Source of the DNA: an uncultured candidatus Porisulfidus sp.
Lineage (GTDB): Bacteria; Pseudomonadota; Gammaproteobacteria; Poriferisulfidales; Oxydemutatoraceae
Reading direction: 5' to 3'
Assembly (NCBI GenBank): GCA_965215765.1
Contig: OZ244118.1
Location: forward strand, 2,484,598-2,548,597
Length of the DNA: 64,000 nt
The position numbers and the translations under genes are program-made. Of the stretch, positions 31,401 to 53,445 are shown piece after piece; position 1 is the first letter of the stretch; the number at the start of each line of letters is the position of its first letter. The notes under the pieces are model-generated. The model searched no databases and had not been told where the DNA came from. It was given only the letters and a program-made list of their open reading frames with translations.

Positions 31401-34400
31401 ATCCCCGGTATCACGCGCACATCAGTCAGAGAACCAGGAACGTCCAGCAGGCGCACGGAAACACGGGCAGCTTCGCCAGCACCATAAAGGTTGTAGCTGC
31501 GAACCGTTAAAAAGAGCGTGCTCCCGCCTTCATGACGGGCGCGCAGCTTCTGCAACCAGTCAACTCCCGCTATGAAGTAATCCGAGAGCGTTTCCTCAAA
31601 AAGCACTCCACTTTCTACACGATAACCGATTCGCTCAGGCCCGCCCAATGGGCGTTCCCAACGCAGCAGCAAGGCAGACGGGGATTTCCATTGCGCGTGC
31701 AGGCGCAAGGGTTTGCCAGGAGTCTCAAAGCCCCGCAGAACCGGCAGCGCCTTGTGATCGCCGAAGGACCAGGTCTCGGCACTCCAGCCTGAGTATGTTG
31801 ACCTACCCGCACACTCCAGGCCGGGGGCGGTGGGGCAACGCAGTTGCTGCAGCGTCCGCAGGGAGCCTGATCCCCGCCCGGTGTCATCTGCCACAAAAGG
31901 CACGCTGCCACCATTGACGCGAGGCAACTCTGCTGCGTAGCTGTCGGCAATGCCTCCCCGACTGCTGCCGGCAAAACTTCCAGTCTGACCGGCTCCGGAC
32001 ACCGACCCTGCCGCGTAGCTGCGACTGGCTGTGCCTTGATTGTTTGCCACAAGACCCGCAACCAGACCTTTCCCGGTCACAAAGGCTGTTGTGTAACTGT
32101 CAGTCACCGAGCCCTGGTTGTCTGCGACCAGACCACCCGCCCGAACTGCTCCTGACACCGAGCCTCCGGCATAGCTTGTGTTGATACTCCCGCCTGTCAG
32201 ATTTCTTCCGACCAGACCACCTGCAACCTGAGCTCCCGGCTCTGTCGTCAGTTGAGCCGCGCTGCCGCTGATCGTGCCTGCGTTGATGCCAACGAGTCCT
32301 CCCGCCACTTGCCCACCAAAAAGTGAGGCCGTCACCCCGCTGTTCACGATCCTTCCTCCCTCGTTCCTGCCCGCCAGGGCACCCACGTTGACGCTTCCCC
32401 AAAGCTGCGCGTTAACCAGCACGACCTGCTGCAACAGACCACCCCGAAGCTGCGCAAACATGCCGACATCTTCCAGCGCATCAGAGCGCACCCATAAGTG
32501 GAAAATCTGATAACCGGCACCGTCAAGGGAACCGGAAAAATCGGCGATCGGTGCAAAACCTTCTCCGGCTCGCCAGTCCTGGGATGGACCTGCCTCAATA
32601 TCGCCTGCCAGCCGGTAGTGGGCTACAGGTGCAGAGCGAATGTCCTGCAATTGGCACAGCGTGGCAATCTGCCAGGGATCGTCCTCGCTGCCCGGGCCGC
32701 CCGAACCGCCTGCCGATGCCAGGGCTTCCCCGTCGCACTGCCAGGGACGGGTAAATGCCGACAGGAAAAATGACGACCCTTCTCCAACATTGTTATAGGG
32801 TGTTGCTACCACTTCATAGAAGCTGTCGCTTGCCAGACCCGAAAATTCCACAACTGCGAATGTTTTGCCAACTGTGTGCGTACGCTCCCGCTCCTGCATC
32901 AGTTCTCCCCCGGTGTACAGCCGTACCCGGTAGCCCAGACCTGCAGGAACCCCGACACCCGCATACCCGTAAGCCGGGTCTTCCGGTGATTGGCCGTAGC
33001 CGTCGTCAGCCGGAGCCATAAGCGACACACGCAGTGAAAACGCTTGCGCCGATGCCCGAACGACTGCCAATTTGCCAGGGGCTCTCAGCAGCTTGATCGC
33101 AACCGTTGTCGCTTCACTCATGCCATGGCGGTTATATCCACGCACGCTGACTTGCAAGGTACTGCCCCTATATTCGGAACGGAGGCTTTGCACCAGGCGC
33201 CTGCCGAACGTAAAAGATGCGGACTCCGTTTCCAGGGAACGCCCTGCCATCTCCACCCAATAGCCGGCGTTCAGGCTTCCTGTTTTTGCGGCTGTCCAGC
33301 TCAGTTCCAGATCACCTTCCAGGTTCCATCGCGCCTGCAGGCGGGAAGGGGGAGCAGGTGGCACTGCTTGCAGGGCGCGATGAACCGGAAGCGTCTGCCT
33401 GTCTCCGAAATACCAGACCTGGGTGCTCCAGCCGGAGTAACTGGCCGCTCCCTGGCACGTGTCTCCCGGCAAAAGAGGGCACTGCAATTGCGCCAGCGTG
33501 CGGGAAAAATTATTTTCTGTGGCATCCTCTTCCCCGCTACCCACGAGTTCCAGCGCGCTGCTGCCGACACCCGGCTCCAAGGCGTAATTCGCAGCCATAT
33601 CGGTGCCTTCGGAATGCCCCACCAGCGTGCCCGCCTGGTTGTTCCCGTTAACCAGTCCTGTAGCATAACTGTCCTCAATCCTGACGTTATAGCTTGTGCT
33701 GCTCTCACTGTTTCCCGCCAGCCCGCCTACCTGCACATTTCCGCTGACCGATCCGGTTGCGTAGCTTTCCCTGAGCCAGGATTCATTGTGTCCCACCAGA
33801 CCGCCCACCCGCTCATTTCCGCTGACCGGTCCGGTCGCATGGCTTCCGAAGATTGACCCTAAGCTGTAGCCAGCCAGCCCGCCCACACCATTCCCCGCGC
33901 CAATAACCGTGCTGTCCGAGTGGCTGTTAACTATGGAATAGTAATCGTTCCAGCCCACCAGCCCGCCCACATTTCTCGTTCCGCTGACCACTCCTGCCGA
34001 ATAAGAGCCGAATATAAAGCCAACGTTATAACCCGCCAGCCCGCCCACAGAAGAACGCCCGCTCACCGTTGACTGCGCTTGGCTGTGGTAGATCGGAGCT
34101 TGATTGAGCCCTACCAGTCCACCAACATTGTCTGCTCCGCTCACACTTCCTCTCGCGTGCGAACTACGAATCCTCGCGCCCAGGAAGTTTCTGCCCACCA
34201 GCCCGCCTATTGTGTTGCCGTGCCCCTGGGAATCAATCGTTCCGACAACAGTGGACTCCGAATGGCTGAGCTTGATCAAGCCATGGTTTTCACCTGCCAC
34301 TCCGCCCACATTTGCCCGTCCGCCTATCAACCCCGACACCGTGCTGAGCTCGATTAGCCCATGGTTCTCACCTGCCACTCCTCCCACACGATCCCGACCG

Positions 34401-37400
34401 CCTATCAACCCCGTTACCGTGCTGCCCTTGATGCTTCCATTTGCCGCAACGCTTCCTGCCAGGGCTCCTGTTGCATCTCTGCCCCATACTGTGACATTCA
34501 CTAGCGCCAGCCTTTGCAGAGCACCACCGCTGAGTTTCCCGAACAGCCCGACATGGTCTGTCTGCCCAGGATTGATCAAAAGACTCAGAACGCTGTGACC
34601 ACTCCCGTCCAGAGAGCCGGAAAAAGATTCAATCGGAGGAAAACCCTTTCCGTCACGCCACTCGTGGCTTTGCTTCGCGTCTATGTCGTTTGCCACCCGA
34701 TAATGCGCTGCCGTGTCGTAACGTATTTCCTGCAACTGGCAAAGTGAGCCAACCTGCCAGGGGTCATCCTCGCTGCCAGAGCCCGCTGCTGTTATCACCG
34801 CTGCCCATGGGCACGCGCCAACGTAGGTGAAAACCGGCACTGCCTCCGTTGGGCCTGCGCCCGCCTTGTTTCTGGCAAACACCCTGACTTCATACCTGGA
34901 ACCACCTTCCAGGCCTGAAAATTCCACTACGGCCGAGCTTGACCATTCCTGTTGTGTCTTATGCCGATCTTCTTTCAACAGGCCTTTTGAAAACAGTTGC
35001 ACGTGATATACGAGATCCAGCGCAACTCCGCCTGCCGGCTTCCCGTACGCGCTGCTGCCCGGAGTGCGTCCGTAGCCGTCATCAGTTGCCCCGACAATGG
35101 TGACCCGTATTGTCGACAGCCCTGAAGCTACCTGGGTCACCACCGCCCCCGGAGCTTTCATTAAATGGAAACTTCCCGACGTTACCTCTCCCGCAACGTC
35201 TCCTTTTACGCCGCGTATGGAATAGTGGATTTCACTGCCGCTGGTGTAACGCTTACGCAATTCAGCCATTAATGAGCCGCCAAGCGCAAAGCGGGTTCCC
35301 TCGGTGTCTCGAATGATTCCGCCCACCTCAAGCTCATAGGAATTCACGACAACTCCTTGATGCTCCCACTGCAGCGTCAATCCACCTCTCGAATTCCAGT
35401 TTGCCCGGACTGCAAGTGGTGCAGCGGGAACATTCGTGAGCACCCGGAGCACGGGCAGCATGCGGGAGTGCCCGAAATGCCAAATTCGCGGATCCCAACC
35501 CAGATACACTCTGGCTGCCCGGCAAAGATTGACGGGATCCATCGAACACTTCATTTGTTCCACAGTGCGCAAAGCACTGCCCTGTACAGTGCCATCATTC
35601 CCGCCCACGAGGCTGTCCACGTCGCCCAGCTTGCTGGCATAGCTGCGAGCTATCGTGCCACTGTTGACCCCGACCAGTCTGCCCGGCAAATCAGTTCCTC
35701 CTACAGCACCAGTGCTATAGGCACTTCTGACCGTACCGCTGTTTTCGCCGACCAGACCGCCTGTCTGACTGCCTCCGGTCACTGTGCCTTGTGCGTAGCA
35801 GTTACCGATGCTTCCTTTGTTATCGCCGACCAGACCCCCAACCTGGTTCTTTCCACTCACACGTGATCCCCGGGATACATGGCTACTCACGATCCTGGCG
35901 TTGCTCTCGCTCACACCCACCAAGCCCCCAACCCCGGGGGCTGTTCCGACAACCTGGTTAAGCGCGTAACTGTCACTGATGGTGCCGCCTAGGTGCAAAC
36001 CCACCAGACCGCCTGTCTGTCTGTTTCCGGTCACTGTGCCTTTTGCGTAGCTGTTGCTGATGCTTCCCTTGTTTTCGCCCACCAGACCTCCGATTTGTTT
36101 GGTTCCTGTTACTGCCCCTAGCGCATGACTGCCTTCAATTGTGCCACCTTCGTTCTGACCTACCAGCCCGCCTGTCTGACTGTCCCCGGTCACCGTGCCT
36201 TGTGCGTAGCTGTCACTGATGCTTCCTTTGTTTTCGCCGACCAGACCGCCGACTTGTTCATACCCACGCACATGTACTTCCTGATGTGTATGGCTGTTCA
36301 CAATCCTGGCGTTGCCTTCATTCACACCCACCAGACCGCCTGTCTGATTCATCCCGGACACTGTGCCTTGTGCGTAGCTGCCACTGATGGTGCCGCCAAG
36401 GTGGCGACCCACCAGACCGCCTGTCTGATTGATCCCGGACACTGTGCCTTGTGCGTAGCTGTCACTGATGGTGCCGCCAAGGTGACGGCCCACCAGACCG
36501 CCTGTCTGACTGTCTCCGGTCACTGCGCCTTGTGCGTAGCTGTCACTGATGCTTCCCTTGTTTTCGCCGACCAGACCCCCGACTTGATTCTTTCCACGTA
36601 CTTTCCCGAATGCTCGGCTGGTCACGATCCTGGCGTTGCCCTCGCCCACACCCACCAGACCGCCTATCTGACTGTCTCCGGACACTGTGCCTTTTGTGTA
36701 GCTGTCGCTGATGCTTCCCTTGTTTTCGCCGACCAGACCGCCGACCTTGTTCTTTCCACTCGCATTTGATCCCAATTCTGTATAGCTATTCACGATCTTG
36801 GCGTTGCTCTCGTTCACACCCACCAATCCCCCAATCCCGAGGGCTGCTCCGACAACCTTGTTCTTCGTGTGGCTGCCACTGATGGTGCCGCCAAGGTGCC
36901 AACCCACCAGACCACCCACGTACGCGTAGCCCCATATAGAGCCGGTCCCGGTCACATCTCCATTCGCATGGCTGGAAGTGACCGAACCCCTGTTTTTGCC
37001 CACCAGACCTCCGACTTGATTGCCTCCTGTTACTGCCCCCGACGCATGACTGCCCGCAATCGTGCCACCGTCATTCTGACCCACCAGACCGCCGACAACC
37101 CATCTGTCGCGAGAGTTCTCCCCAACCCTTACCATTGACGTGCTGTTGCGGATGATACCGCCCTGATTCAGACCAACCAGCCCACCGATGGTTCCGTCCC
37201 CGTCAACCTTGCCATCAACCTCGCTGTCCTCAATCGTTCCTTGATTGTTCAGCCCAACCAGAGAACCAACACTCACTCCGCCTTTCGTCGAAAAATTCAC
37301 CAGCTTCACGCGCTTCAGCAAGCCACCCTGCAGTTCGCCAAACAGCCCTATATTCTTGAATGCTTCGTCTGCTGCGTTGACCTTCAAATTGGAAATCTGA

Positions 37401-39142
37401 TAACCGTTGCCATCATAAGCGCCAGAAAAACCCTTGATCGGTGCAAAACCGTTTTTCCAGCCATGCGTCATCGTCGTTGCGTCTATATCGTTGATCTGGA
37501 TGTAGTGCGACTCGGGCGATGTTTCCATGTCGCGCAAATGGCACAGGTTTTCTACCTGGTAGGGATCACTTTCAGTTCCGGAACCCGCCATGGCCTGCGA
37601 ACTTATAGCGCACGCCTGAACTGGATCCATATAGGGAAATTGGCTGTTGTTGTAATAGGTGTCTCCGTAATTGAGAATGTTGAAGGCTCTTTCGTCCGCG
37701 TAAATCCCTCCCATCCCGTAATACCACGTGGTGCATTCCCAACCCGGATTGGTAGGGAAGGTATTGTAAACCCCTATCGCCATGCCGGTCTTTTTATAAA
37801 ACGCGGTTGAGCCGGACGCTCCAAACGTAGGAGAGATGCCCTTATACGTTAATTCTAAAAACCAGCAAATCGCTCCTTCACAGAAAGGTGGGGCACCTTT
37901 CTTGCCGCCGACGGTCTTGTAGGCTGCCCGGTTTAGCGGTGCCACTGCACTTTCAAACTCGGCCAACTGCTGAGGCCTGGAGCCGGAGTGGTGTACGGAG
38001 TAACCACTGAAGGTACCGGTAGTGCGGGTCATCCACTCCAGCAATTTATAATTTCCGTGCCCGGAAAATGCCCCATCAAGACGCACAATCGCCCAATCTC
38101 CACCCTCATCAGATCTTGGCACCATTGCCTTTCCTGCCACATATCTCACACCATGGGCGTGTGAATCACCAGGAAGACCGACGTAGAATGCTAAAAACGG
38201 TTTGTCCACAGTGTCAGCGTCCACTTCAGGGAAAGAGTGAAATGCTGTCAGAATGTAGGCTCCACCACCCGACTTGTTCTTTATAAAAGTCCCAGTCCCG
38301 CAGAGACCATTGCGGCAGAAGCTCACGACACCATTGGTCACATCATGCACGTAAGCCGGGCTCTCGTTGTCTACATAGTTATTCTCACCGGGGTAAGTTC
38401 TGGTGCCTGCGCGCTCGCAACTGCCGGCTTGTCTCCGAGGCACCAGGTTCCTGATTTCCTCTCCGTATAAAACTCCGTTGTTATCCTTGAATGTGTGGCT
38501 CACTTTTTCGACCGAAAAAGGAAAATCGCTCGGCTCCAGGTGGTAACTGTCAGGAACCCAAAACTCTATGACAACAGTGTCACCAGACGTCGGGAACGCC
38601 ACAAAGCTGCCATCATCACGTGACAAGCCGCGTCCCGTGTACTCTACGACCTCTTGATTGCTGTCTCCGGCGGGGGCATAGACATTCACCGACATCCCCG
38701 GGTCGAGGGGAAACCCAGAAAAATGCAACCACAGCTGCAGGGCAGACGGAGAGCGAATCTGCGCCTGCCAGACATCAAGGCCATCTTCCTGTTTGACCAG
38801 TGCCCAGTTGGAACGCCTTAACCGGACGTCCCGGGCAAAGCTGGTGTAGTTGATCGTTGTCGCACGAAGCAGTTCACGAATTTGCTCTTGTTCCCGGGTA
38901 CTGAAAGACCCCAAGTCCAGTTGCTGCGCGCGGGCAGGATACAGAGTTAGAGTGGCTTCCCGGGCATTCCTCCCCTCCGAAAAGGGATAGGACGTGAAGC
39001 CTTGTTCTGCCAGAGATTCCTGATCCTGGCCGAAAACGAGTGAGCTTGACGTGATGATGGATACACCCACGAGCAGCAACTTCAGCCAACCATGGCTGCC
39101 GGAAATCTGCGCATCCGGAAATCTGAAATCTGCTTTTTTCAT
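28490..39142 (-). CDS. Paralog D: giant secreted S1-protease/GLUG/FN3 protein, 3550 aa
   Basis: Uninterrupted ORF. It has extra GLUG units in block 1 and two block-2 units of the STVSGLIGGRANVGGVAGENHGLIELS type. Confidence 0.9.
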   Translation of the reverse strand: MKKADFRFPDAQISGSHGWLKLLLVGVSIITSSSLVFGQDQESLAEQGFTSYPFSEGRNAREATLTLYPARAQQLDLGSFSTREQEQIRELLRATTINYTSFARDVRLRRSNWALVKQEDGLDVWQAQIRSPSALQLWLHFSGFPLDPGMSVNVYAPAGDSNQEVVEYTGRGLSRDDGSFVAFPTSGDTVVIEFWVPDSYHLEPSDFPFSVEKVSHTFKDNNGVLYGEEIRNLVPRRQAGSCERAGTRTYPGENNYVDNESPAYVHDVTNGVVSFCRNGLCGTGTFIKNKSGGGAYILTAFHSFPEVDADTVDKPFLAFYVGLPGDSHAHGVRYVAGKAMVPRSDEGGDWAIVRLDGAFSGHGNYKLLEWMTRTTGTFSGYSVHHSGSRPQQLAEFESAVAPLNRAAYKTVGGKKGAPPFCEGAICWFLELTYKGISPTFGASGSTAFYKKTGMAIGVYNTFPTNPGWECTTWYYGMGGIYADERAFNILNYGDTYYNNSQFPYMDPVQACAISSQAMAGSGTESDPYQVENLCHLRDMETSPESHYIQINDIDATTMTHGWKNGFAPIKGFSGAYDGNGYQISNLKVNAADEAFKNIGLFGELQGGLLKRVKLVNFSTKGGVSVGSLVGLNNQGTIEDSEVDGKVDGDGTIGGLVGLNQGGIIRNSTSMVRVGENSRDRWVVGGLVGQNDGGTIAGSHASGAVTGGNQVGGLVGKNRGSVTSSHANGDVTGTGSIWGYAYVGGLVGWHLGGTISGSHTKNKVVGAALGIGGLVGVNESNAKIVNSYTELGSNASGKNKVGGLVGENKGSISDSYTKGTVSGDSQIGGLVGVGEGNARIVTSRAFGKVRGKNQVGGLVGENKGSISDSYAQGAVTGDSQTGGLVGRHLGGTISDSYAQGTVSGINQTGGLVGRHLGGTISGSYAQGTVSGMNQTGGLVGVNEGNARIVNSHTHQEVHVRGYEQVGGLVGENKGSISDSYAQGTVTGDSQTGGLVGQNEGGTIEGSHALGAVTGTKQIGGLVGENKGSISNSYAKGTVTGNRQTGGLVGLHLGGTISDSYALNQVVGTAPGVGGLVGVSESNARIVSSHVSRGSRVSGKNQVGGLVGDNKGSIGNCYAQGTVTGGSQTGGLVGENSGTVRSAYSTGAVGGTDLPGRLVGVNSGTIARSYASKLGDVDSLVGGNDGTVQGSALRTVEQMKCSMDPVNLCRAARVYLGWDPRIWHFGHSRMLPVLRVLTNVPAAPLAVRANWNSRGGLTLQWEHQGVVVNSYELEVGGIIRDTEGTRFALGGSLMAELRKRYTSGSEIHYSIRGVKGDVAGEVTSGSFHLMKAPGAVVTQVASGLSTIRVTIVGATDDGYGRTPGSSAYGKPAGGVALDLVYHVQLFSKGLLKEDRHKTQQEWSSSAVVEFSGLEGGSRYEVRVFARNKAGAGPTEAVPVFTYVGACPWAAVITAAGSGSEDDPWQVGSLCQLQEIRYDTAAHYRVANDIDAKQSHEWRDGKGFPPIESFSGSLDGSGHSVLSLLINPGQTDHVGLFGKLSGGALQRLALVNVTVWGRDATGALAGSVAANGSIKGSTVTGLIGGRDRVGGVAGENHGLIELSTVSGLIGGRANVGGVAGENHGLIKLSHSESTVVGTIDSQGHGNTIGGLVGRNFLGARIRSSHARGSVSGADNVGGLVGLNQAPIYHSQAQSTVSGRSSVGGLAGYNVGFIFGSYSAGVVSGTRNVGGLVGWNDYYSIVNSHSDSTVIGAGNGVGGLAGYSLGSIFGSHATGPVSGNERVGGLVGHNESWLRESYATGSVSGNVQVGGLAGNSESSTSYNVRIEDSYATGLVNGNNQAGTLVGHSEGTDMAANYALEPGVGSSALELVGSGEEDATENNFSRTLAQLQCPLLPGDTCQGAASYSGWSTQVWYFGDRQTLPVHRALQAVPPAPPSRLQARWNLEGDLELSWTAAKTGSLNAGYWVEMAGRSLETESASFTFGRRLVQSLRSEYRGSTLQVSVRGYNRHGMSEATTVAIKLLRAPGKLAVVRASAQAFSLRVSLMAPADDGYGQSPEDPAYGYAGVGVPAGLGYRVRLYTGGELMQERERTHTVGKTFAVVEFSGLASDSFYEVVATPYNNVGEGSSFFLSAFTRPWQCDGEALASAGGSGGPGSEDDPWQIATLCQLQDIRSAPVAHYRLAGDIEAGPSQDWRAGEGFAPIADFSGSLDGAGYQIFHLWVRSDALEDVGMFAQLRGGLLQQVVLVNAQLWGSVNVGALAGRNEGGRIVNSGVTASLFGGQVAGGLVGINAGTISGSAAQLTTEPGAQVAGGLVGRNLTGGSINTSYAGGSVSGAVRAGGLVADNQGSVTDSYTTAFVTGKGLVAGLVANNQGTASRSYAAGSVSGAGQTGSFAGSSRGGIADSYAAELPRVNGGSVPFVADDTGRGSGSLRTLQQLRCPTAPGLECAGRSTYSGWSAETWSFGDHKALPVLRGFETPGKPLRLHAQWKSPSALLLRWERPLGGPERIGYRVESGVLFEETLSDYFIAGVDWLQKLRARHEGGSTLFLTVRSYNLYGAGEAARVSVRLLDVPGSLTDVRVIPGITTLRLSFTAPANDGYGRKPVDADYATSAEAMALRLAYRIRLYASGELTEERDITLGNPLSPVTVEFAELKSAFAYRLEAFAHNTVGTGSPSTIRAVTSFPGCAGKGLKSAQGDGSGDNPWQIGTLCQLQDVRSDLYAHYVQVADIDASPSRGWSGGDGFHPIESFSGTFSGAGREISDLYINRPETNTIGLFSRLAEDGIAKGVVLVDAWVKGKNSVGALVGFNDGTVMNSVVKSAQISGNRAGLNVGGLAGGSGGLLVDSGASAEVDGGRYVGGLVGYVKTKGRVVGSTVRASQVRALESAGGLAGLALGATILYSSADAAVRVSGEGRDNAGGLVGYSQGSTILHCYATGLAIAVDGSRAGGLVGYSGSTIAYSYADVSVSGDSRVGGLAGINSGSVHASYALGEVRGRSISGGLVGNNIRRIQDSYAVNSVDGESGSTGSLVGYSAPDAVIDRSYAPVSAQAALVGNGLTGSSSPRTLTQLRCPTAAGQRCAGATTYAGWEPGAWHFGNTRTLPLLRELADIPATPVDLAVRWESPDHLRFTWAAGSSAVDSYELELAGTIREVTAPTFDFDGDFLAGFRKNKQEACPHPYRLRAVHGDVAGYPAAGHFYLPGLPGATTITELVPGQTTARLVLTTMGYGDCASLADNALATSPDRVAGSGLGYVVVVSAAGRSTETFFSAGAFDTEIEITDLLPKRSYSLQVYARNRAGVGEPAQASENRSAFSTIAVPGRPSGLRARWESTNRVNLSWEAASSNGATIDSYQLFVDGKSHPVVGTGTSYVLSGHVLVQLRKKHTGGEQIRYSLRAINRAGTGATSTATFTLLNVLEGTLAMQLVHKANGRVQVHLQYSGNDGYGRTADHADFGALVDGILLGLGYRVQLISYGELMEEQSVAMPTPGGAVRTEFTGLQGGVAYEVRAFPRDSVAELPGMSQFINWDPEIPTTPRPGPHHVKKLRLKVFLGGMVR
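35700..36800 (-). repeat. Intragenic GLUG-motif repeat block 1 of paralog D
   Basis: Periodic coding repeats. Bounds are approximate. Confidence 0.45.
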
Positions 39143-39276
39143 TGTGAATGCTTAGGAGCCATGCGGACGGAGAAAAGAGAGCCTGACCGCCCTGAGACAT
39201 AAAATTCCCTGCACCACATTCGCTATCTGTTCTCCATGGCTGACGCACTGAGCGTTCCTCTGGCTCTGACCTTCAC

Positions 39277-39522
39277 TTACTCTCTGATGTACCAGCACGG
39301 CTGTACGCAGGCAGGATACAGAGTTCGAGTGGCTTCCCGGGCATTCCTCCCCTCCGAAAAGGGATGGGACGCGAAGCCTTGTTCTGCCAGAGATTCCTGA
39401 TCCTGACCGAAAACGAATGAACTCGACGTGATGATGGATACACCCACCACGAGCAAGTACTTCAGCCAGACACGGCTGCCGGAAATCTGCGCATCCGGAA
39501 ATCTGAAACCTGCTTCTTTCAT
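39277..39522 (-). CDS. Upstream mini-ORF (81 aa)
   Basis: MKEAGFRFPDAQISGSRVWLKYLLVVGVSIITSSSFVFGQDQESLAEQGF... Confidence 0.35.
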   Translation of the reverse strand: MKEAGFRFPDAQISGSRVWLKYLLVVGVSIITSSSFVFGQDQESLAEQGFASHPFSEGRNAREATRTLYPACVQPCWYIRE

Positions 39523-39656
39523 TGTGAATGCCTACGAGCCATGCGGGCGGAGAAAAGAGAGCCTGACCACCCTGAGACATAAAATTCCCTGCACCACATT
39601 CGCTATCTGTTCTCCATGGCTGACGCGCTGAGCGATCCTCTGGCTCTGACCTTCAC

Positions 39657-39902
39657 TCACTCTCTGATGTCCCAGTACAGCTGTACGCGGGCAGGATACA
39701 GAGTTCGAGTGGCTTCCCGGGCATTCCTCACCTCCGAAAAGGGATGGGACGCGAAGCCTTGTTCTGCCAGAGATTCCTGATCCTGTCCGAAAACGAATGA
39801 ACTCGACGTGATGATGGATACACCCACCACGAGCAAGTACTTCAGCCAGACACGGCTGCCGGCAATCTGCGCATCCGGAAATCTGAAATTTGCTTTTTTC
39901 AT
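39657..39902 (-). CDS. Upstream mini-ORF (81 aa)
   Basis: MKKANFRFPDAQIAGSRVWLKYLLVVGVSIITSSSFVFGQDQ... Confidence 0.35.
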   Translation of the reverse strand: MKKANFRFPDAQIAGSRVWLKYLLVVGVSIITSSSFVFGQDQESLAEQGFASHPFSEVRNAREATRTLYPARVQLYWDIRE

Positions 39903-40036
39903 TGTGAATGCTTAGGAGCCATGCGGACGGAGAAAAGAGAGCCTGACCACCCTGAGACATAAAATTCCCTGCACCACATTCGCTATCTGTTCTCCATGGC
40001 TGACGCACTGAGCGTTCCTCTGGCTCTGACCTTCAC

Positions 40037-40279
40037 TTACTCTCTGATGTCCCAGCACGGCTGTACGCAGGCAGGATACAGAGTTCGAGTGGCTTCCCGG
40101 GCATTCCTCCCCTCCGAAAAGGGATGGGACGCGAAGCCTTGTTCCGCCAGAGATTCCTGATCCTGTCCGAAAACGAATGAACTAGACGTGACGATGGATA
40201 CACCTACGAGCAAGTACTTCAGCCAACCATGGCTGCCGGAAATCTGCGCATCCGGAAATCTGAAACCTGCTTCTTTCAT
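40037..40279 (-). CDS. Upstream mini-ORF (80 aa)
   Basis: MKEAGFRFPDAQISGSHGWLKYLLVGVSIVTSSSFVFGQDQ... Confidence 0.35.
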   Translation of the reverse strand: MKEAGFRFPDAQISGSHGWLKYLLVGVSIVTSSSFVFGQDQESLAEQGFASHPFSEGRNAREATRTLYPACVQPCWDIRE

Positions 40280-40413
40280 TGTGAATGCTTAGGAGCCATG
40301 CGGGCGGAGAAAAGAGAGCCTGACCACCCTGAGACATAAAATTCCCTGCACCACATTCGCTATCTGTTCTCCATGGCTGACGCGCTGAGCGATCCTCTGG
40401 CTCTGACCTTCAC

Positions 40414-40656
40414 TCACTCTCTGATGTCCCAGTACAGCTGTACGCGGGCAGGATACAGAGTTCGAGTGGCTTCCCGGGCATTCCTCACCTCCGAAAAGGG
40501 ATGGGACGCGAAGCCTTGTTCTGCCAGAGATTCCTGATCTTGGCCAAAAACGAGTGAGCTTGATGTGATGATGGATACACCCACGAGCAGCCACTTCAGC
40601 CAACCATGGCTGCCGGAAATCTGCGCATCCGGAAATCTGAAATTTGCTTTTTTCAT
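40414..40656 (-). CDS. Upstream mini-ORF (80 aa)
   Basis: MKKANFRFPDAQISGSHGWLKWLLVGVSIITSSSLVFGQDQ... Confidence 0.35.
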   Translation of the reverse strand: MKKANFRFPDAQISGSHGWLKWLLVGVSIITSSSLVFGQDQESLAEQGFASHPFSEVRNAREATRTLYPARVQLYWDIRE

Positions 40657-40790
40657 TGTGAATGCTTAGGAGCCATGCGGACGGAGAAAAGAGAGCCTGA
40701 CCACCCTGAGACATAAAATTCCCTGCACCACATTCGCTATCTGTTCTCCATGGCTGACGCACTGAGCGTTCCTCTGGCTCTGACCTTCAC

Positions 40791-41126
40791 TTACTCTCTG
40801 ATGTCCCAGCACGGCTGTACGCAGGCAGGATACAGAGTTCGAGTGGCTTCCCGGGCATTCCTCCCCTCCGAAAAGGGATGGGACGCGAAGCCTTGTTCTG
40901 CCAGAGATTCCTGATCCTGTCCGAAAACGAATGAACTCGACGTGATGATGGATACACCCACCACGAGCAAGTGCGAAGCCTTGTTCTGATCCAGAGATTC
41001 CTGATCCTGTCCGAAAACGAATGAACTCGACGTGATGATGGATACACCCACCACGAGCAAGTACTTCAGCCAGACACGGCTGCCGGAAATCTGCGCATCC
41101 GGAAATCTGAAATCTGCTTTTTTCAT
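40791..41126 (-). CDS. Upstream mini-ORF (111 aa, with internal 30-codon duplication)
   Basis: MKKADFRFPDAQISGSRVWLKYLLVVGVSIITSSSFVFGQDQESLDQNKASHLLVVGVSIITSSSFVFGQDQESLAEQGF... Confidence 0.3.
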   Translation of the reverse strand: MKKADFRFPDAQISGSRVWLKYLLVVGVSIITSSSFVFGQDQESLDQNKASHLLVVGVSIITSSSFVFGQDQESLAEQGFASHPFSEGRNAREATRTLYPACVQPCWDIRE

Positions 41127-41316
41127 TGTGAATGCTTAGGAGCCATGCGGGCGGAGAAAAGAGAGCCTGACCACCCTGAGACATAAAATTCCCTGCACCA
41201 CATTCGCTATCTGTTCTCCATGGCTGACGCACTGAGCACTCCTCTGGCTCTGACCTTCACTCACTCTCTGATGTCCCAGTACGGCTGTACGCGCCGAAAA
41301 ATCACTTAGTGGGTTA

Positions 41317-41345
41317 ATTGTACAAAATAACGCCCAATCCGGCAA
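41317..41345 (-). promoter_or_regulatory. Sigma70-like promoter TTGCCG-N17-TACAAT for paralog D
   Basis: attgta at 41317-41322 and cggcaa at 41340-41345. It lies ~2.2 kb upstream of the real ATG because of the module array. Confidence 0.45.
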
Positions 41346-41664
41346 ATTATTATTAAGAAGATACCGACCCCATCCGACCGGAAAACCCCGAAAACAGTGC
41401 CAAGGCGTACTGTCATATTTGTGAGCTTTTAGGTCTGCAAGGGGGTGAATCAGTGGCAATAGTCGGCACTGCGACTTCTTGTTTTTAACCGCGAAAAACA
41501 TGAAAGTTGGTATTTGCAATTCGTATGATTTCAGTTTTGGGGCAGCTTCCAAAGTTCACCAAAAGCCCCAATTCAAGACCTGTTGTTTTAAGACAATTCA
41601 ATAGCTGTGCCTCATGTTCATCAGTAATGTTTGTCATGGCAGATAAGGTCAGGCTTATGGACTT

Positions 41665-41842
41665 GCTTTAAAGGTTCACCCTCTGTGCCTTGAAAGGAAT
41701 GCCCCTTATGGAAAACTCATTCTCCGGACACTCCTGGCACACTGCCTCAAGTAAGCCACACCTCATTTCCCTGAATCGCATGGCATTCATCAGGAAACAA
41801 AACTTCTCGTGCTTTTCGCGGTTGTTAAATTCGTGTATGCCC
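41665..41842. repeat. Single copy of the ~186-bp 3' unit downstream of the paralog E stop
   Basis: Homologous to the units at 4520..5222. Confidence 0.6.
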
Positions 41843-44800
41843 TCAGCGAACCATACCGCCCAAGAACGCTCTCAGGCGCAATTTCTTGACGTGATGCGGG
41901 CCGGGTCTCGGCGTTGTCGGGATCTCGGGATCCCAGTTGATAAATTGACTCACTCCTGGCAGCTCAGCCACACCGTCCCGGGGAAATACCCGGACTTCGT
42001 ACGCAACACCACCCTGCAGCCCCGTAAATTCCGTCCTGACAGCTCCCCCGGGCGTCGGCATCGCAACAGACTGTTCCTCTATCAGTTCTCCGTACGAAAG
42101 CAGTTGTACCCGATACCCCAAGCCGAGCAATATTCCGTCAACCGGGGCTCCGAAATCAGCATGATCCGCAGTGCGTCCATAGCCATCATTTCCCGAATAC
42201 TGCAAGTGTACCTGCACACGACCATTCGCCTTGTGCATCAACTGCATGGCCAATGTTCCCTCAAGAACGTTGAGCAAAGTAAATGTTGCCGTGCTTGTCG
42301 CGCCCGTTCCGGCGCGGTTGATTGCCCGGAGCAAATAGCGTATCTGCTCTCCTCCTGCGTGCTTCTTGCGCAACTGCACCAAGGCATGTCCTGACAACAC
42401 ATAAGAAGTGGCGGTTCCCGCAACGGGGTAGCTTTTTCCGTCCACAAAAAGCTGGTAGCTGTCTATCGTCGCCCCGTTGCTGCTCGCCGCTTCCCAACTC
42501 AGGTTCACCCGGTTTGTGGACTCCCACCTGGCTCGCAAGCCTGAAGGTCTGCCAGGCACCGCTATGGTGCTGAACGCATCCCTGTTTTCGGACGCTTGGG
42601 CAGGCACTCCGGCGCCCGCCCGGTTGCGTGCATAGACCTGTAACGAATAGCTTCTCTTCGGCAGCAAGTCGGTGATCTCAATCTCGGCGTCAAAAGCACC
42701 TGCCGAGAAAAAGGTCTCGGTACTGCGTCCTGCAGCACTCACAATCACCACGTAGCCAAAACCGGAGAGCATGGCACGATCAGGGGAAGTCGCAAGCGCA
42801 TTGTCCGCCAAGGAAGCGCAATCGCCATATCCCATGGTTGTCAACACCAGACGCGCAGTGGTTTGACCGGGCACCAGCTCCGTTATCGTTGTCGCGCCCG
42901 GAAGACCGGGCAAATAGAAATGACCGGCTGCCGTATAGCCAGCGACATCTCCGTGTACAGCGCGAAGACGGTACGGGTGGGGGCAAGCCTCTTGCTTGTT
43001 TTTCCGAAACCCGGCCAGAAAATCTCCGTCAAAGTCAAAAGTCGGAGCTGTGACCTCCCGTATTGTTCCTGCCAGTTCAAGTTCGTAGGAATCAACCGCT
43101 GAACTTCCCGCCGCCCAAGTGAAGCGCAGATGATCCGGAGATTCCCAGCTCACCGCCAAATCAACCGGTGTGGCAGGAATGTCGGCAAGCGCGCGCAGCA
43201 AGGGCAACGTGCGGGTATTACCAAAATGCCAGGCTCCCGGTTCCCAGCCGGCATAAGTCGTGGCATCTGCACATCTCTGCCCCACCGCAGTCGGGCAACG
43301 CAGTTGGGTCAGAGTGCGAGGTGAACTGCTGCCCGTTAAGCCATTGCCCACCAAAGATGCCTGTGCAGACACGGGTGCGTAACTGCGATCAATCATCGCA
43401 TCCGGAGCAGAATAACCTGCCAGACTCCCGGTGCTGCCCGACTCCCCAACAACCCTGTTCACCGCATAGCTGTCCTGAATGCGGCGGATATTGCTTCCGA
43501 CCAACCCCCCGGTGATGGAGCGACCCCGTACCTCACCGAGTGCATAGCTCGCATGGACAGAACCGGCGTTGATGCCCGCCAGTCCGCCAACACGATCAGC
43601 TCCGCTGACCGACACGTCGGCATAGCTGTAGGCAATGGTGCTTCCGCTGTAGCCGACCAAGCCGCCGACGCGCGAGCCGTCCACAGCGATGGCCGAACCT
43701 GTCGCGTAACAGTGCAAAATCGTGCTTCCCAGACTGTAGCCAACCAGACCGCCGGCATTGCCCCGCCCTTCACCCAAGACGCGCACCGCCGCATCGGCAC
43801 TGCTGTACAAAATAGCGGCTCCCAGAGCCAGACCGGCCAGACCACCGGCAGACTCAATCGCGCGTACTTGCGAAGCCCTCACCGTACTGCCCACGACCCG
43901 ACCTTTTGCTTTCACATAACCGACCAGACCGCCGACGTATCTGCCCCCGTCGACCTCGGCACTGGCACCACTGTCAACCAGTAATCCTCCGTTGCCACCC
44001 GCCAGCCCGCCAATGTTGACTCCGGCTCTGTTGCCGGAAACCTGTGCAGACCTCACGACGCTGTTCATGACGGTTCCGTCGTTAAAGCCGACCAAAGCTC
44101 CGACGCTGTTTTTTCCTCTTACCCACGCATCAACGAGCACCACCCCCTTGGCGATCCCGTCTTCTGCAAGTCTGGAGAACAGGCCAATCGTGTTCGTTTC
44201 CGGGCGGTTAATGTACAGATCAGAGATTTCCCGCCCTGCCCCGTCAAAGGTGCCTGAAAAAGGCTCTATCGGATGAAAGCCGGCACCGCCTGACCACCCC
44301 CGACTCGGGCTGGCGTCAATGTCTGCGACCTGCACATAGTGAGCGTACAGATCAGAGCGCACATCCTGCAGTTGGCACAGCGTGGCAATTTGCCACGGGT
44401 TGTCGCCGCTGCCGTCACCCGATGCACTTTTCAGACCCTTGCGGGCGCATCCCGGAAAGCTGGTCACGACCCGGATCGTTGACGGCGATCCGGTGCCCAC
44501 CGTGTTATGGGCGAAGGCTTCCAGCCGATATGCAAAGACACTTTTAAGCTCCGTAAATTCCATCGTGACCGGGCTCAGAGGATTCCCCAGCGGAATGTCG
44601 CGTTCTTCAACCAGCTCCCCGGTCGCATACAGACGTATCCGGTAAGCCAGGTGCAAAGCCATGGCTTCCGCTGACGCTGCGTAATCAGCGTCAACCGGCC
44701 TGCGGCCATAGCCGTCATTGGCCGGGGCTGTAAAGCTGAGTCTCAGCGTGGAAACCCCCGGCACCACGCGCACACCAGTCAGAGAACCGGGAACATCCAG

Positions 44801-47800
44801 CAGGCGCACGGAAACACGGGCAGCTTCGCCAACACCATAAAGGTTGTAGCCGCGAACCGTTAAAAAGAGCGTATTCCCGCCTTCATGACGAGCGCGCAGC
44901 TTCTGCAACCAGTCCGATCCTCCCACGTAGTACAACGATGCGGTTTCCTCAGCAGCGATCGATGGAGCCTCAATCCGGTAAGCGATCAGTTCTCTGGTGT
45001 GAAGCGGAGGCTCCCAACGCAGCAACAAGGAAGACGGGGATTTCCACTGTGCCAGCAGGCGCAAGGGTTTGCCAGGAGTCTCAAAGCCCCGCAGAACCGG
45101 CAGCGTCCTGTAATCGCCAAAGGACCAGATCTCGGCACTCCAGCCTGAGTATGTTGACCTTCCCGCACACGCCAAGCCGGGGGTGGTGGGGCAACGCAGT
45201 TGCTGCAGTGTCCGCAGAAAGTCTGATCCCTGCCCGGTGCCATCTGCCACAAAAGGCACGCTGCCACCATTGCCACCGTTGGCGCGAGGCAACGCTGCTG
45301 CGTAGCTGTCGGTGATGCCTCCCGGACTGCTGCCGGCAAAACTTCCAGACCGTCCGGCTCCGGACACCGATCCTGCCGCATAGCTGCGGCTGACTGTGCC
45401 TTGATTGTTTGCCACAAGACCCGCAACCAGACCTTTCCCTGTCACAAAGGCTGTTGTGTAACTGTCAGTCACCGAACCCCGGTTGTCTGCGACCAGACCA
45501 CCCGCCCGAACTGCTCCTGACACCGAGCCTCCGGCATAGCTTGTATCAATACTCCCGGTTACCAGATTTTTCCCGACCAGACCACCCGCAACCTGAGCTC
45601 CCGGCTCTGTCGTCAGTTGAGCCGCGCTGCCGCTGATCGTGCCTGCGTTGATGCCAACGAGTCCTCCCGCCACTTGCCCGCCAAAAAGTGAGGCCGTCAC
45701 CCCGCTGTTCATGATCCTTCCTCCCTCGTTCCTGCCCGCCAGGGCACCCACGTTGACGCTTCCCCAAAGCTGCGCGTTCACCAGCACGACCTGCTGCAAC
45801 AGACCACCCCGAAGCTGCGCAAACATGCCGACATCTTCCAGCGCATCAGAGCGCACCCATAAGTGGAAAATCTGATAACCGGCACCGTCAAGGGAACCGG
45901 AAAAATCGGCGATCGGTGCAAAACCTTCTCCGGCTCGCCAGTTCCGGGATGGACCTGCCTCAATATCGCCTGCCAGCCGGTAGTGAGCTGCAGGTGCAGA
46001 ACGAATATCCTGCAATTGGCACAGCGTGGCAATCTGCCAGGGATCACCCTCGCTGCCCGAACCACCTGCCAATGCCACGGCTTCCCCGTCGCACTGCCAG
46101 GGACGGGTAAATGCCGACAGGAAAAATGACGGCCCTTCTCCAGCCCTGTTATAGGGCGTCGCCACCACTTCATAGCGGCTATCGCTTGCCAGACCCGAAA
46201 ACTCCACAGCCACGGATGTTTCGCCGTCTGTGTGTGCAAGCTCCTGTTCCTGCATCAGTTCTTCCCCGGTGTACAGCCGTACCCGGTAGCCCAGACCTGC
46301 AGGAACCCCGACACCCGCATACCCGTAAGCCGGGTCTTCCGGTGATTGGCCGTAGCCGTCGTCAGCCGGAGCCATAAGCGACACACGCAGTGAAAACGCT
46401 TGCGCCGATGCCCGAACGACTGCCAATTTGCCAGGGGTTCTCAGCAGCTCGATCGCAACCGTTGTCGCTTCACTCATGCCATGACGGTTATATCCACGCA
46501 CGCTGACTTGCAGGGTGCTGCCCCTATATTCAGAACGGAGGCTTTGCAACAGGTGCCTGCCGAGCGTAAAAGACGCGGATCCCGTTTCCATGGAGTGTCC
46601 TGCCACCTCCACCCAATAGCCGGCGTTCAGGCTTCCTGTTCTCGCGGCTGTCCAGTTCAGTTCCAGTTCACCTTCCAGGTTCCATTTCACCTGTAGGCGC
46701 GAAGGGGAAGAAGGTGGTAGCGGTCGCAGGGCGCGATGAACCGGAAGCGTCTGCCCGTCCCCGAAATACCAGACCTGTGTGTCCCAGCCGGAGTAACTGA
46801 CTGCTCCCTGGCACGTGTCTCCCGGCAAAAGGGGGCACTGCAATTGCGCCAGCGTGCGGGAAAAATTGTTTTCTGTGGTGTCATCTCCCCTGCTGCCCAC
46901 GAGTTCCAGCGTACTGCTGTCGGCACCCGGCTCCAAGGCGTAATTCGCAACCATATCGGTTCCTTCGGAATGCCCCACCAGCGTACCCTCCTGATTGTTC
47001 CCGCTGACCAGACCAGTCGCATAACTGTCCTCAATCCTGACGTTATAGCTTGTGCTGCTCTCACTGTTTCCCGCCAGCCCGCCTATCTGCGCTTTCCCGC
47101 TCACCGATCCGGTTGCGTAGCTTTCCCTGAGCCAGGATTCATTGTGTCCCACCAGACCGCCCACTCGCTCATTTCCGCTGACAGCTCCGGTCGCGTGGCT
47201 TCTGAGGATTGACCCTGAACTCATGCCCGCCAGACCTCCCACACGGTTCCCCGCGCCGATAACCGTGCTGTCCGAGTGGCTGTCAACTATGGAATTGGAA
47301 TTGTGCTGGCCCACCAGCCCGCCCACATTTTCCGTTCCGCTGACCGCTCCTGCCGAGTAAGAGCCGCTTATAAAACCATAGTTATTACCCACCAGTCCGC
47401 CTACATATTGATGCCCGCTCACCGTTGACTGCGCATGGCTGTGATAGATCGAAGCATCACTGTCTCCCACCAGTCCACCAACATTGTCTGCTCCGCTCAC
47501 GCTTCCTCTCGCGTGCGAACTACGAATCCTCGCGCCCAGGAAGTTTCTGCCCACCAGCCCGCCTATTGTGTTGCCGTGCCCCTGGGAATCAATCGTTCCG
47601 ACAACAGTGGACTCCGAATGGCTGAGCTTGATCAAGCCATGGTTCTCACCTGCCACTCCGCCCACATTTGCCCGTCCGTCTATCAACCCCGACACCGTGC
47701 TGAGCTCGATTAGCCCATGGTTCTCACCTGCCACTCCTCCCACATTTGCCCGTCCGCCTATCAACCCCGACACCGTGCTGAGCTTGATCAAGCCATGGTT

Positions 47801-50800
47801 CTCACCTGCCACTCCTCCCACACGATCCCGACCGTCTATCAACCCCGTCACCGTGCTGCCCTTGATGCTTCCATTTGCCGCAACGCTTCCTGCCAGGGCT
47901 CCTGTTGCATCTCTGCCCTGCACCGTGACATTCACCAGCACCAGACTTTGCAGGGCACCACCGTTGAGCCTCCCGAACAGCCCGACATAGTCTGTTTGCC
48001 CAGGATTGATCAAAAGACTCAGAATGCTGTGACCACTCCCGTCCAGAGAGCCGGAAAAAGGTTCAATCGGTGCAAAGCCCTTTCCGTCTCGCCACTCGTG
48101 GCTTTGCTTCGCGTCTATATCGTTTGCCAGCCGATAATGCGCTGCCGTGTCGTAACGTATTTCCTGCAACTGGCAAAGTGTGCCAACTTGCCAGGGGTCA
48201 TCCTCGCTGCCAGAGCCTGCTGCCGTTATCACCGCTTCCCATGGACACGCGCCAACGTAGGTGAAAACCGGTGCTGCCTCCGTTGGGCTTGCGCCCACTT
48301 TGTTTCTGGCAAACACCCTGACTTCATACCTGGAACCACCTTCCAGGCCTGAAAATTCCACTACGGCCGAGCTTGACCATTCCTGTTGTGTCTTATGCCG
48401 ATCTTCTTTCAACAGTCCTTTTGAAAACAGTTGCACGTGATATACAAGATCCAGCGCAACTCCGCCTGCCGGCTTCCCGTACGCGTTGCTGCCTGGAGTG
48501 CGTCCGTAGCCGTCATCAGTTGCCCCGACAATGGTGACCCGTATTGTCGACAGCCCTGAAGCTACCTGGGTCACCACCGCCCCCGGAATTTTCATTAAAT
48601 GGAAACTTCCCGACGTTGCATCTCCCGCAATGCCTCCTTTTACGCCGCGTATGGAATAATGGATTTCACTGCCGTTGGCGTAACGCTCACGCAATTTAGC
48701 CATCAATGTATCGTCAAGCGCGAAACGGGTTCCCTCGGTGTCTCGAATGATTCCGCCCACCTCCACCTCAAAGGAACTCACGGCGGCTCCCCGATGCTCC
48801 CACTGCAGCGTCAATCCACCTCTCGAATTCCAGTTTGCCCGGACTGCAAGTGGTGCAGCGGGAACATTCGTGAGCACCCGGAGCACGGGCAGCATGCGGG
48901 AGTGCCCGAAATGCCAAATTCGCGGATCCCAACCCAGATACACTCTGGCTGCCCGGCAAAGATTGACGGGATCCATCGGACACTTCATTTGTTCCACAGT
49001 GCGCAAAGCACTGCCCTGTACAGTGCCATCATTCCCGCCCACGAGGCTGTCCACGTCGCCCAGCTTGCTGGCATAGCTGCGAGCTATCGTGCCACTGTTG
49101 ACCCCGACCAGTCTGCCCGGCAAATCAGTTCCTTCTACAGCACCAGTGCTATAGGCACTTCTGACCGTACCGCTGTTTTCGCCGACCAGACCGCCTGTCT
49201 GGCTGCCTCCGGTCACTGTGCCTTGTGCGTAGCAGTTACCGATGCTTCCTTTGTTATCGCCGACCAGACCCCCAACCTGGTTCTTTCCACTCACACGTGA
49301 TCCCCGGGATACATGGCTACTCACGATCTTGGCGTTGCTCTCGCTCACACCCACCAAGCCCCCAACCCCGGGGGCTGTTCCGACAACCTGGTTAAGCGCG
49401 TAACTGTCACTGATGGTGCCGCCTAGGTGCAAACCCACCAGACCGCCTGTCTGACTGTCTCCGGTCACTGGACCTCGTGCGTAGCTGTTACTGATGCTTC
49501 CCTTGTTTTCGCCGACCAGACCGCCGACTTGATCCTTCCCACTCACGCGTACTTCCTGGCGTGTATGGCTATTCACAATCCTGGCGTTGCTTTCGTTCAC
49601 ACCCACCAGACCGCCTGTCTGACTGTCCCCGGTCACTGTGCCTTGTGTGTAGCTGTCACTGATGCTTCCTTTGTTTTCGCCGACCAGACCGCCGACTTGA
49701 TCCTTCCCACGCACATGTACTTCCTGACGTGTATGGCTGTTCACAATCCTGGCGTTGCTTTCGTTCACACCCACCAGACCGCCTGTCTGACTGTCCCCGG
49801 TCACTGCGCCTTGTGTGTAGCTGTCACTGATGGTGCCGCCAAGGTGGCGGCCCACCAGACCGCCTGCCTGATTGATCCCGGACACTGTGCCTTGTGCGTA
49901 GCTGTCACTGATGCTTCCCTTGTTTTCGCCGACCAGACCCCCGACTTGATTCTTTCCACGTACTTTCCCGAATGCTCGGCTGGTCACGATCCTGGCGTTG
50001 CCCTCGCCCACACCCACCAGACCGCCTATCTGACTGTCTCCGGACACTGAACCTTGTGCGTAGCTGTCGCTGATGCTTCCCTTGTTTTCGCCGACCAGAC
50101 CGCCTATCTGACTGTCTCCGGACACTGTGCCTTTTGTGTAGCTGTCGCTGATGCTTCCCTTGTTTTCGCCGACCAGACCGCCGACCTTGTTCTTTCCAAT
50201 CGCATTTGATCCCAATTCTGTATAGCTATTCACGATCTTGGCGTTGCTCTCGCTCACACCCACCAAGCCCCCAATCCCGGGGGCTGCTCCGACAACCTTG
50301 TTCTCCGTGTGGCTGCCACTGATGGTGCCGCCAAGGTGCCAACCCACCAGACCACCCACGTACGCGTAGCCCCATATAGAGCCGGTCCCGGTCACATCTC
50401 CATTCGCATGGCTGGAAGTGACCGAACCCATGTTTTTGCCCACCAGACCGCCGACTTGATTGCCTCCTGTTACTGCCCCAGACGCATGACTGCCCGCAAT
50501 CGTGCCACCGTCATTCTGACCCACCAGACCGCCGGCAACCCATCTGTCGCGAGAGTTCTTCCCAACCCTTACCGTTGACGTGCTGTTGCGGATGACACCG
50601 CTCTGATTCAGGCCAACCAGCCCACCGATGGTTCTGCCCCCGTCAACCTTGCCATCAACCTCGCTGTCCTCAATCGTTCCCCGATTGTTCAGCCCAACCA
50701 GAGAACCGACATTCACTCCGCCTTCCGTCAAAAAATCCACCAGCTTCACGCGCTTCAGCAAGCCACCCTGCAGCTTGCCAAACAGCCCTATATTCTCGAG

Positions 50801-52558: not shown

Positions 52559-52691
52559 TGTGAATGCTTAGGAGCCATGCGGGCGGAGAAAAGAGAGCAT
52601 AGCCCGCCTGCGGCATAAAACTCTTGGCACAATATTCACCTTCTGTTCTCCTGGCTGACGCACTGAGCGATCTTCTGGCTCTGACCTTCAC

Positions 52692-52934: not shown

Positions 52935-53068
52935 TGTGAATGCTTAGGAGCCATGCGGGCGGAGAAAAGAGAGCCTGACCACCCTGAGACATAAAATTCC
53001 CTGCACCACATTCGCTATCTGTTCTCCATGGCTGACGCACTGAGCGATCCTCTGGCTCTGACCTTCAC

Positions 53069-53311: not shown

Positions 53312-53445
53312 TGTGAATGCTTAGGAGCCATGCGGACGGAGAAAAGAGAGCCTGACCACCCTGAAACATAAAATTCCCTGCGCCACATTCGCTATCTGTT
53401 CTCCATGGCTGACGCACTGAGCGATCCTCTGGCTCTGACCTTCAC

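Follow-up and report, generated by a model that had tools for sequence, protein, structure and literature searches.

In simple-sequence contingency loci a unit of 1-10 bp changes in number by slipped-strand mispairing, and in expression-site/silent-cassette systems (Mycoplasma vsa, Pneumocystis UCS/MSG) one promoter and its 5' module serve many silent genes lacking a 5' part. The toxin genes cdiA, rhs and maf are followed by orphan 3' cassettes that lack a promoter and carry varied toxin tips along with immunity genes. Variable numbers of 7-bp repeats are located upstream of hmw1A and hmw2A in non-typeable Haemophilus influenzae, where repeat number is generally inverse to the amount of mRNA (PMC2424069, PMC8262952); the evolving unit of the tandem lpl paralogs of Staphylococcus aureus is formed by the 3' region of one gene, the intergenic stretch and the following gene's 5' region (Tsuru and Kobayashi 2008, PMC2568036); and ATGA stop/start overlaps mediate translational coupling by termination-reinitiation (PMC6728339). 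The 64-kb stretch of contig OZ244118.1 analyzed in this work (64,000 nucleotides, called the window) contained six giant paralogous genes (A to F), arranged head-to-tail and all on the minus strand, and in A, C, D and E tandem copies of a 5' gene stub (leader, ATG and signal-peptide codons) were located between the predicted promoter and the real start codon. On balance, these stub arrays are rather probably tolerated by-products of recombination with side effects on expression, without any dedicated function being implied.

The arrays were similar to the HMW loci in that paralogs for large surface or secreted proteins had differing numbers of tandem repeats upstream of the start codon, but the HMW unit is a 7-bp non-coding sequence varying by slippage, whereas the units of this locus and its relatives were of 377 or 305 bp, included an initiation region and a signal-peptide open reading frame (ORF), and would vary by recombination. 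They shared with lpl the tandem host-interaction paralogs, a conserved segment serving as recombination site and incongruent adjacent segments; however, lpl shuffles whole variable regions, and arrays of start-codon-bearing 5' stubs are not reported there. Mini-ORFs of the 305-bp type, whose stop overlaps the ATG of the next ORF, resembled the ATGA couplings, although such coupling is known between different genes of an operon and not between serial copies of one gene start. As in the cdiA, rhs and maf cassettes, promoter-less partial copies made by recombination accompanied a giant secreted-protein gene, but here they were near-identical 5' fragments, placed upstream and without any alternative functional domain. 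Two further classes were considered and rejected: the simple-sequence contingency loci, given a unit of 377-380 bp or 305 bp, and expression-site/silent-cassette variation, given that no paralog lacked a conserved promoter, a leader, an ATG or a complete ORF of its own. The features observed were those of large-unit tandem duplication: in-register copies, a junction at short homology and variable copy number with higher-order duplication. No published equivalent of arrays of translated 5' gene stubs was found in a limited literature search, and to that extent the statement of an earlier, sequence-only reading, that the structure matches no system described so far, stood.

Tandem Repeats Finder detected a 377-bp array at 38929-40961 (5.4 copies, 94% matches, score 3599), and two more at 26440-27935 (period 380, 4.0 copies) and 52339-53853 (period 377, 4.0 copies). 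The scores for periods 377-380 upstream of C, D and E (2446-3599) were far above chance, and the copies were in register head-to-tail. The start context AGCATTCACAATGAAA occurred 17 times on the minus strand, with 351-470 bp between successive ATGs, corresponding to 1, 0, 3, 5 and 3 extra copies for A, B, C, D and E respectively, the same numbers given by the sequence-only reading. That reading was also right about a period of some 377 bp (377-380 bp), but its ~150 nt of untranslated region and ~76 codons had to be revised: alignment of the 17 units resolved a 163-nt leader plus 214 nt of coding sequence (71 codons and 1 nt). The unit started at TACAGCC, ~22 nt past the predicted transcription start, and ended in ...CTGTATCCTGCCCGCG; beyond this point, homology to the real gene faded across a ~10-nt microhomology. 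Past the junction, the mini-ORF frame entered the leader and stopped nine codons further on (...VQLYWDIRE or ...VQPCWDIRE, then the stop codon).

All the extra units (12 of 12) had an ATG and an open frame, of 80-81 aa as previously described, with the exception of the unit nearest the promoter of D (D1), which encoded 111 aa. The predicted peptides consisted of QDQESLAEQGFASHPFSE... followed by the junction tails VQLYWDIRE or VQPCWDIRE. By reading, cleavage is likely between VFG and QDQ, which would leave a mature peptide of ~42 aa (~43 aa had been proposed): the first ~33 residues past the signal peptide plus 9 residues read from the leader, in a tail that differed among copies. The longer mini-ORF of D1 was due to an in-frame 90-bp internal tandem duplication (40885-41062). 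This duplication repeated the hydrophobic core of the signal peptide, so that the 111-aa mini-ORF had two hydrophobic segments. Module C3 was only 354 bp long due to a deletion of 26-29 bp in its leader part. The deletion variant (27140-27176, ...GACATCAGATCCATATAGTGCG...) shared the motif ATCCATATAGTGCG with the leader of L009, a locus from another sample, which suggests that the C3 deletion is an old shared variant rather than a private one.

The two ends of the unit shared short homology (leader CGCGTACAGCCGTGCTGG vs. coding CGCGCACAGCAACTGG), and the junction lay at this homology, between GGCGCG-TACAGC-CGTGCTGGGA in the leader and CCCGCG-CACAGC-AACTGGACTTGGGG in the coding sequence. Junctions in the A, C and D arrays were CGCGTACAGCC, whereas those in the E array were CGCGCACAGCC or CGCGCGCAGCC, and thus the crossover point differed within the homology.

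Modules were not grouped by array: E1 shared 98% identity with D1, D3 97.4% with D5, D2 97.1% with the proximal unit of D, and the proximal unit of B 99.7% with that of C. The promoter-bearing 300 nt gave other pairs (C/E 99.3%, B/D 95.2%), and the gene bodies, 78-93% identical, placed A closest to B, where the proximal units paired B with C. Modules D2+D3 and D4+D5 were the two copies of a 757-bp dimer that had been duplicated: they were identical in their two leaders and two pro-regions, and the differences were confined to patches within the signal-peptide segment. Nucleotide diversity was ~0.10 in this segment vs. ~0.03 in the leader and pro-region. The module trees, the dimer and the incongruent segments point to unequal crossing-over and short-patch gene conversion in the shared 5' block. 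For the arrays as a whole, these sequence relationships point to an illegitimate exchange at the origin, with unequal crossing-over and gene conversion afterwards; the earlier proposal of a footprint of recurrent unequal recombination is strongly supported. Differences between units clustered at codons 14-40 (e.g. 40540-40620 vs. 39780-39865), and two signal-peptide haplotypes, HGWLKWLL-VGV...SSSLVFG and RVWLKYLLVVGV...SSSFVFG, were shuffled as short patches. The proximal leader of paralog E (52559-52720) was 88-93% identical to all the other units, more divergent than its own upstream modules; in type it resembled the leaders of the related contigs (GGGCTATGCTCTC), and it had no ATG for the short leader ORF described below.

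The 3' flank was also repetitive. A 182-bp element began directly after the stop codon (1, 1, 1, 2 and 4 copies), and a related 144-bp array of 8.7 copies followed a homologue from the closest metagenome-assembled genome (MAG; L004 20218-21460). Since variable tandem repeats were present in the 3' flank too, duplication seems to be a general property of the locus.

One sigma-70-like site per paralog (TTGCCG-17-TA[CT]AAT) was located by consensus scan on the gene strand, always upstream of the array, and no promoter-like site was detected by the same scan inside any module of the window arrays; the promoter was therefore distal to the whole array, as had been stated. The comparison set comprised 14 aligned homologous loci from three populations, and the site was conserved in 13 of them, L008 being gapped over the -35. 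The promoter and the whole leader were conserved across the three populations, and the conservation of the promoter is the best argument for regarding the predicted site as real. A terminator-like hairpin preceded the promoter of each paralog; that upstream of D probably ends the transcript of paralog E.

The main ATG had no Shine-Dalgarno sequence. No terminator-like site was found by scanning the extra modules, and the sole match within an array was a weak 5-bp stem in the proximal leader of D; an Rfam E-value scan over the array returned no family, only two chance-level matches to small nucleolar RNAs on the opposite strand; leader and module RNA were no more stable than shuffled sequence (z = +1.27 and +1.32); and the alignment fold showed little covariation. 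Leader attenuation through a terminator/antiterminator or through a structure occluding the start site was rejected on these four grounds. The RfaH/ops element (GGCGGTAGnnTG) had no match in the window at ≤1 mismatch. The C/G ratio of the sense strand was 0.84-0.90 (fewer C than G), making it a poor Rho substrate and Rho-dependent polarity unlikely. A 26-codon upstream ORF (MWCREFYVSGWSGSLFSARMAPKHSQ), preceded by GGAG, started ~77 nt before the main ATGs (e.g. 39143-39219 and 15402-15478), and its TGA overlapped the main ATG (ATGA); it was found in most loci. As a conserved reading frame it was discarded: L002 and L004 had it in frame with the gene, in L007 and L012 a stop followed at once, and L006 and L008 had it in other frames.

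In such an extremely repetitive locus (six ~11-kb paralogs plus internal repeats), the arrays might be artefacts of assembly, produced by repeat expansion or by mis-joining of paralogs. This is extremely improbable. Copies differed pairwise by 2-8%, and consequently they are not collapsed or expanded identical repeats; they also had structured shared variants and distinct indels. The arrays do not exceed 2.2 kb, far below a typical long read. A profile search with the mini-ORFs retrieved P0007 and P0008, identical to the products of D1 and D3 respectively and both encoded on a 2,997,607-bp contig at NCBI and the European Nucleotide Archive (ENA), so that the same arrays are present in the public record, where the gene caller had found the same mini-ORFs. 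Modules were also present in independent contigs of another sample, including a 354-kb contig with a “16x” tag in its name.

Elsewhere on the 2,997,607-bp contig, outside the window, protein records corresponded to modules of the 377-bp type (P0011, P0012 and P0016), to modules of the 305-bp type (P0019 and P0022/P0025) and to a degenerate 5' fragment (P0021). P0016 appears to be frameshifted after ...NAREAT. The 305-bp unit, a second, independent junction type, was defined in contigs of ENA sample ERZ25071281 that were 85-90% identical to the window, and was made up of ~27 nt of leader and 93 codons. L006 had four extra copies of it, and L008, L010 and L012 a single one. With so short a leader it cannot hold a promoter. 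Its mini-ORF, of 102 aa, ended in a TGA overlapping the next ATG (ATGA), that of the real gene included; the 377-bp modules of the window stopped ~125-139 nt before the next ATG, which means there is no stop/start coupling of this kind in them. L012, from the 354-kb contig, carried a stub of another paralog subtype than the gene following it, and this mismatch fits a deletion fusing a paralog 5' end to the next leader at least as well as a local duplication. Both junction types are thus present in two or more populations. Among the GTDB representatives, the closest genome was a Candidatus Oxydemutatoraceae MAG (Gammaproteobacteria, Chromatiales; OZ243039.1), with five homologous loci at 80-85% DNA identity, none of which (0 of 5) had arrays. 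Oxydemutator thiolithooxidans, a named member of the clade, is a sponge symbiont (PMC11685487), and the source organism of the window appears to be related to this sponge-symbiont clade. Searches of JGI metagenomes yielded neither an exact module match nor relatives.

If the stubs are tolerated by-products, three steps would account for them. The first, as the junctions suggest, would be an illegitimate exchange between codons 71-74 (CCCGCG-CACAGC-AACTGG) and a look-alike ~22 nt into the leader (GGCGCG-TACAGC-CGTGCTGG), either by local tandem duplication or by a ~11-kb deletion that joined the start of one paralog to the leader of its neighbour, two routes of equal standing. From two copies onward, as the sequence relationships show, RecA-type unequal crossing-over and patchy gene conversion set the copy number between 0 and 5, moved modules among paralog units, and held the copies similar to the real 5' ends. 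Finally, the survivors would be among the few rearrangements of this repeat-rich locus that spare the initiation region and ORF downstream: because the stub frame is closed ahead of the next ATG or right on it, the real start stays accessible and the stubs would not be purged. A single transcript from the upstream promoter would run through the array, 0.4-2.1 kb longer than otherwise; each stub would probably be translated as a pre-peptide of 80-81 aa with a Sec signal peptide, up to five per message; and the giant ORF would still be initiated independently, any change in expression being a side effect of copy number. Were the arrays scars only, the surviving partial duplications of a hyper-recombinogenic paralog cluster would be those leaving an intact start downstream, and strings of stubs would give rise to small signal-peptide ORFs annotated by gene callers as hypothetical proteins, as is already the case in the public protein records for this genome.

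Several observations weigh against by-products. The two independent junction types persist, spread over many loci and at least two populations 10-15% apart in DNA, and with either of them the stub ORF happens to stop ahead of the next ATG or right on it. The ATG and frame were kept in 12 of 12 window modules, private substitutions in the module ORFs were 9 non-synonymous to 8 synonymous, under the ~3:1 neutral expectation (an underpowered comparison), and both indels in the ORF parts were in frame (3 bp and 90 bp) while the three in leader parts were not. The low non-synonymous share and the in-frame indels can be explained by gene conversion from the selected real genes. As for the intact frames, 5.3% of random substitutions would destroy an ORF, ~0.9 expected among 17 private substitutions, which renders the 12 of 12 statistically uninformative.

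The persistence of two junction types also agrees with a second possibility, not very likely in our opinion, that the arrays are a selected expression tuner or contingency-type locus, in which module number sets paralog output and recombination varies the number, acting through ribosome traffic, transcript length, stability or polarity and creating heterogeneity among paralogs and cells. Copy number did differ among paralogs (0-5), the repeats were located between a conserved promoter and the start codon, and the HMW1/HMW2 adhesins provide a precedent, more 7-bp repeats in the promoter region generally meaning less mRNA (PMC2424069). Nevertheless, a change in a 377-bp unit needs homologous recombination and not fast slippage; bacterial ribosomes initiate internally, and upstream ORFs stopping at least 125 nt before the start need not attenuate; the low C/G ratio makes the sense strand a poor Rho substrate, and no terminator-like site was found by scanning the extra modules; and the five loci of the MAG had no array. 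Allelic copy-number variants were sought in the related contigs and none were found, these contigs all being different paralog loci at most 96% identical.

The mini-ORFs themselves might be the point of the arrays, supplying extra signal-peptide nascent chains that tether the 10.7-kb mRNA to the membrane/Sec machinery, or free ~42-aa peptides acting in trans on the protease domain as pro-peptide or inhibitor. Their initiation context was identical to that of the gene, and for this reason translation of the mini-ORFs is to be expected whenever the gene itself is translated; their frames were all open, in the 305-bp type ATGA overlaps link the ORFs into a chain, an arrangement permitting termination-reinitiation coupling (PMC6728339), and the N-terminal domain of the paralogs is probably a trypsin-like peptidase. 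This explanation is distinctly unlikely, however: the peptide has only ~33 post-signal residues and 9 leader-read residues with a variable tail, the intactness of the ORFs was not significant, and the pro-region was more diverse in modules than in genes (0.038 vs. 0.0155, underpowered). This diversity, together with the apparent frameshift of P0016 elsewhere in the genome, hints against constraint on the mini-ORFs. No evidence of selection on them was found in the substitution and diversity comparisons, which were underpowered, and no NCBIfam family matched the mini-peptide. The functional proposals of the sequence-only reading, namely uORF-like attenuation, ribosome loading and a free secreted pro-peptide, gained no positive support. 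The closest relative being a gammaproteobacterium, with a Gram-negative cell, Sec export would place the peptide in the periplasm and not in the supernatant.

Both ideas can be joined in a selected 5' device sized by recombination, in which nascent chains of the mini-ORFs tether the 10.7-kb mRNA and, with the ATGA variant, set paralog-specific translation or secretion by copy number. We regard this combination as unlikely; such a device would correspond to promoter-repeat phase variation, but with large, translated units. Should the giant host-interaction proteins be expressed or secreted according to copy number, this would represent a new kind of recombination-driven variable expression with translated repeats.

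Table 1. Coordinates of the paralogs, modules, predicted signals and flanking elements in the window.
Feature	Position	Strand	Remarks
Paralog A	start 3583	minus	truncated by left window end
Paralog B	5223-15401	minus	
Paralog C	16310-26659	minus	
Paralog D	28490-39142	minus	3,550 aa; signal peptide, N-terminal trypsin-like His/Asp/Ser motifs, GLUG repeats, FN3 domains
Paralog E	41843-52558	minus	
Paralog F	start 54411	minus	truncated by right window end
D array, exact units in gene direction	41289-40820, 40819-40443, 40442-40066, 40065-39686, 39685-39306	minus	followed by proximal leader 39305-39143
Module D1	40820-41289	minus	470 bp, nearest promoter; leader from ~+22; ATG 41126; 111-aa mini-ORF 40791-41126
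Module D2	40443-40819	minus	377 bp; ATG 40656; 80-aa mini-ORF 40414-40656
Module D3	40066-40442	minus	377 bp; ATG 40279; 80-aa mini-ORF 40037-40279
Module D4	39686-40065	minus	380 bp; ATG 39902; 81-aa mini-ORF 39657-39902
Module D5	39306-39685	minus	380 bp; ATG 39522; 81-aa mini-ORF 39277-39522
Proximal leader of paralog D	39143-39305	minus	163 nt; same sequence as leader part of each module
E array	52721-53854	minus	E1 53475-53854, E2 53098-53474, E3 52721-53097
C array	26823-27933	minus	C1 27554-27933, C2 27177-27553, C3 26823-27176
Module A1	3746-4122	minus	sole extra module of paralog A; ATG 3959; 80-aa mini-ORF
Leader of paralog B	15402-15564	minus	zero extra modules; reference for unduplicated state
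Predicted sigma-70-type promoter of D	41317-41345	minus	TTGCCG-17-TACAAT; predicted transcription start near 41310
Predicted promoters of other paralogs	A 4150-4178, B 15591-15619, C 27962-27990, E 53883-53911		same consensus scan
Terminator-like hairpin	41364-41381	minus	just upstream of D promoter; conserved in 14-locus alignment
GxxExxY-like fragment	41485-41637	minus	homologous copies 4318-4470, 15759-15911, 28158-28285, 54079-54206
182-bp 3' element, multiple copies	4526-5215, 15964-16309		4 copies after B; 2 copies after C
182-bp 3' element, single copies	28338-28489, 41690-41842, 54259-54410		after D, E and F respectively

The paralogs encoded products of 3,392-3,571 aa. By reading, their N-terminus would be a Sec-type signal peptide, MKKADFRFPDAQISGSHGWLK-LLLVGVSIITSSSLVFG, cleaved before QDQ. 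The ~450 aa after it contained His/Asp/Ser motifs as in trypsin-like peptidases, with weak domain matches (lysyl endopeptidase, E = 0.13; Trypsin_2, 1.1e-5 in one homologue), and AlphaFold gave no usable model for the N-terminal 520 aa (pLDDT, predicted local distance difference test, of 30). The remainder of the paralog D product matched GLUG repeats (Pfam Glug, 1.6e-82) and FN3 domains (fn3, 1.9e-25).

All the intergenic regions contained a fragment similar to the C-terminal third of a GxxExxY (PD-(D/E)XK-like) protein (TIGR04256, E = 1.8e-8), which looks like a gene remnant co-duplicated with the paralog unit. The giant proteins, that of paralog D and the others, were composed of ~4 super-repeats of ~650 aa each, in which a “(G)SG.E.DPWQ(I/V)..LCQL” motif was followed by GLUG repeats and, at the end, by FN3-like domains. 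Numerous internal DNA repeats of 78, 162 and 168 bp were present in the paralog genes, and the C-terminus of the giant proteins (...HHVKKLRLKVFLGGMVR) was conserved.

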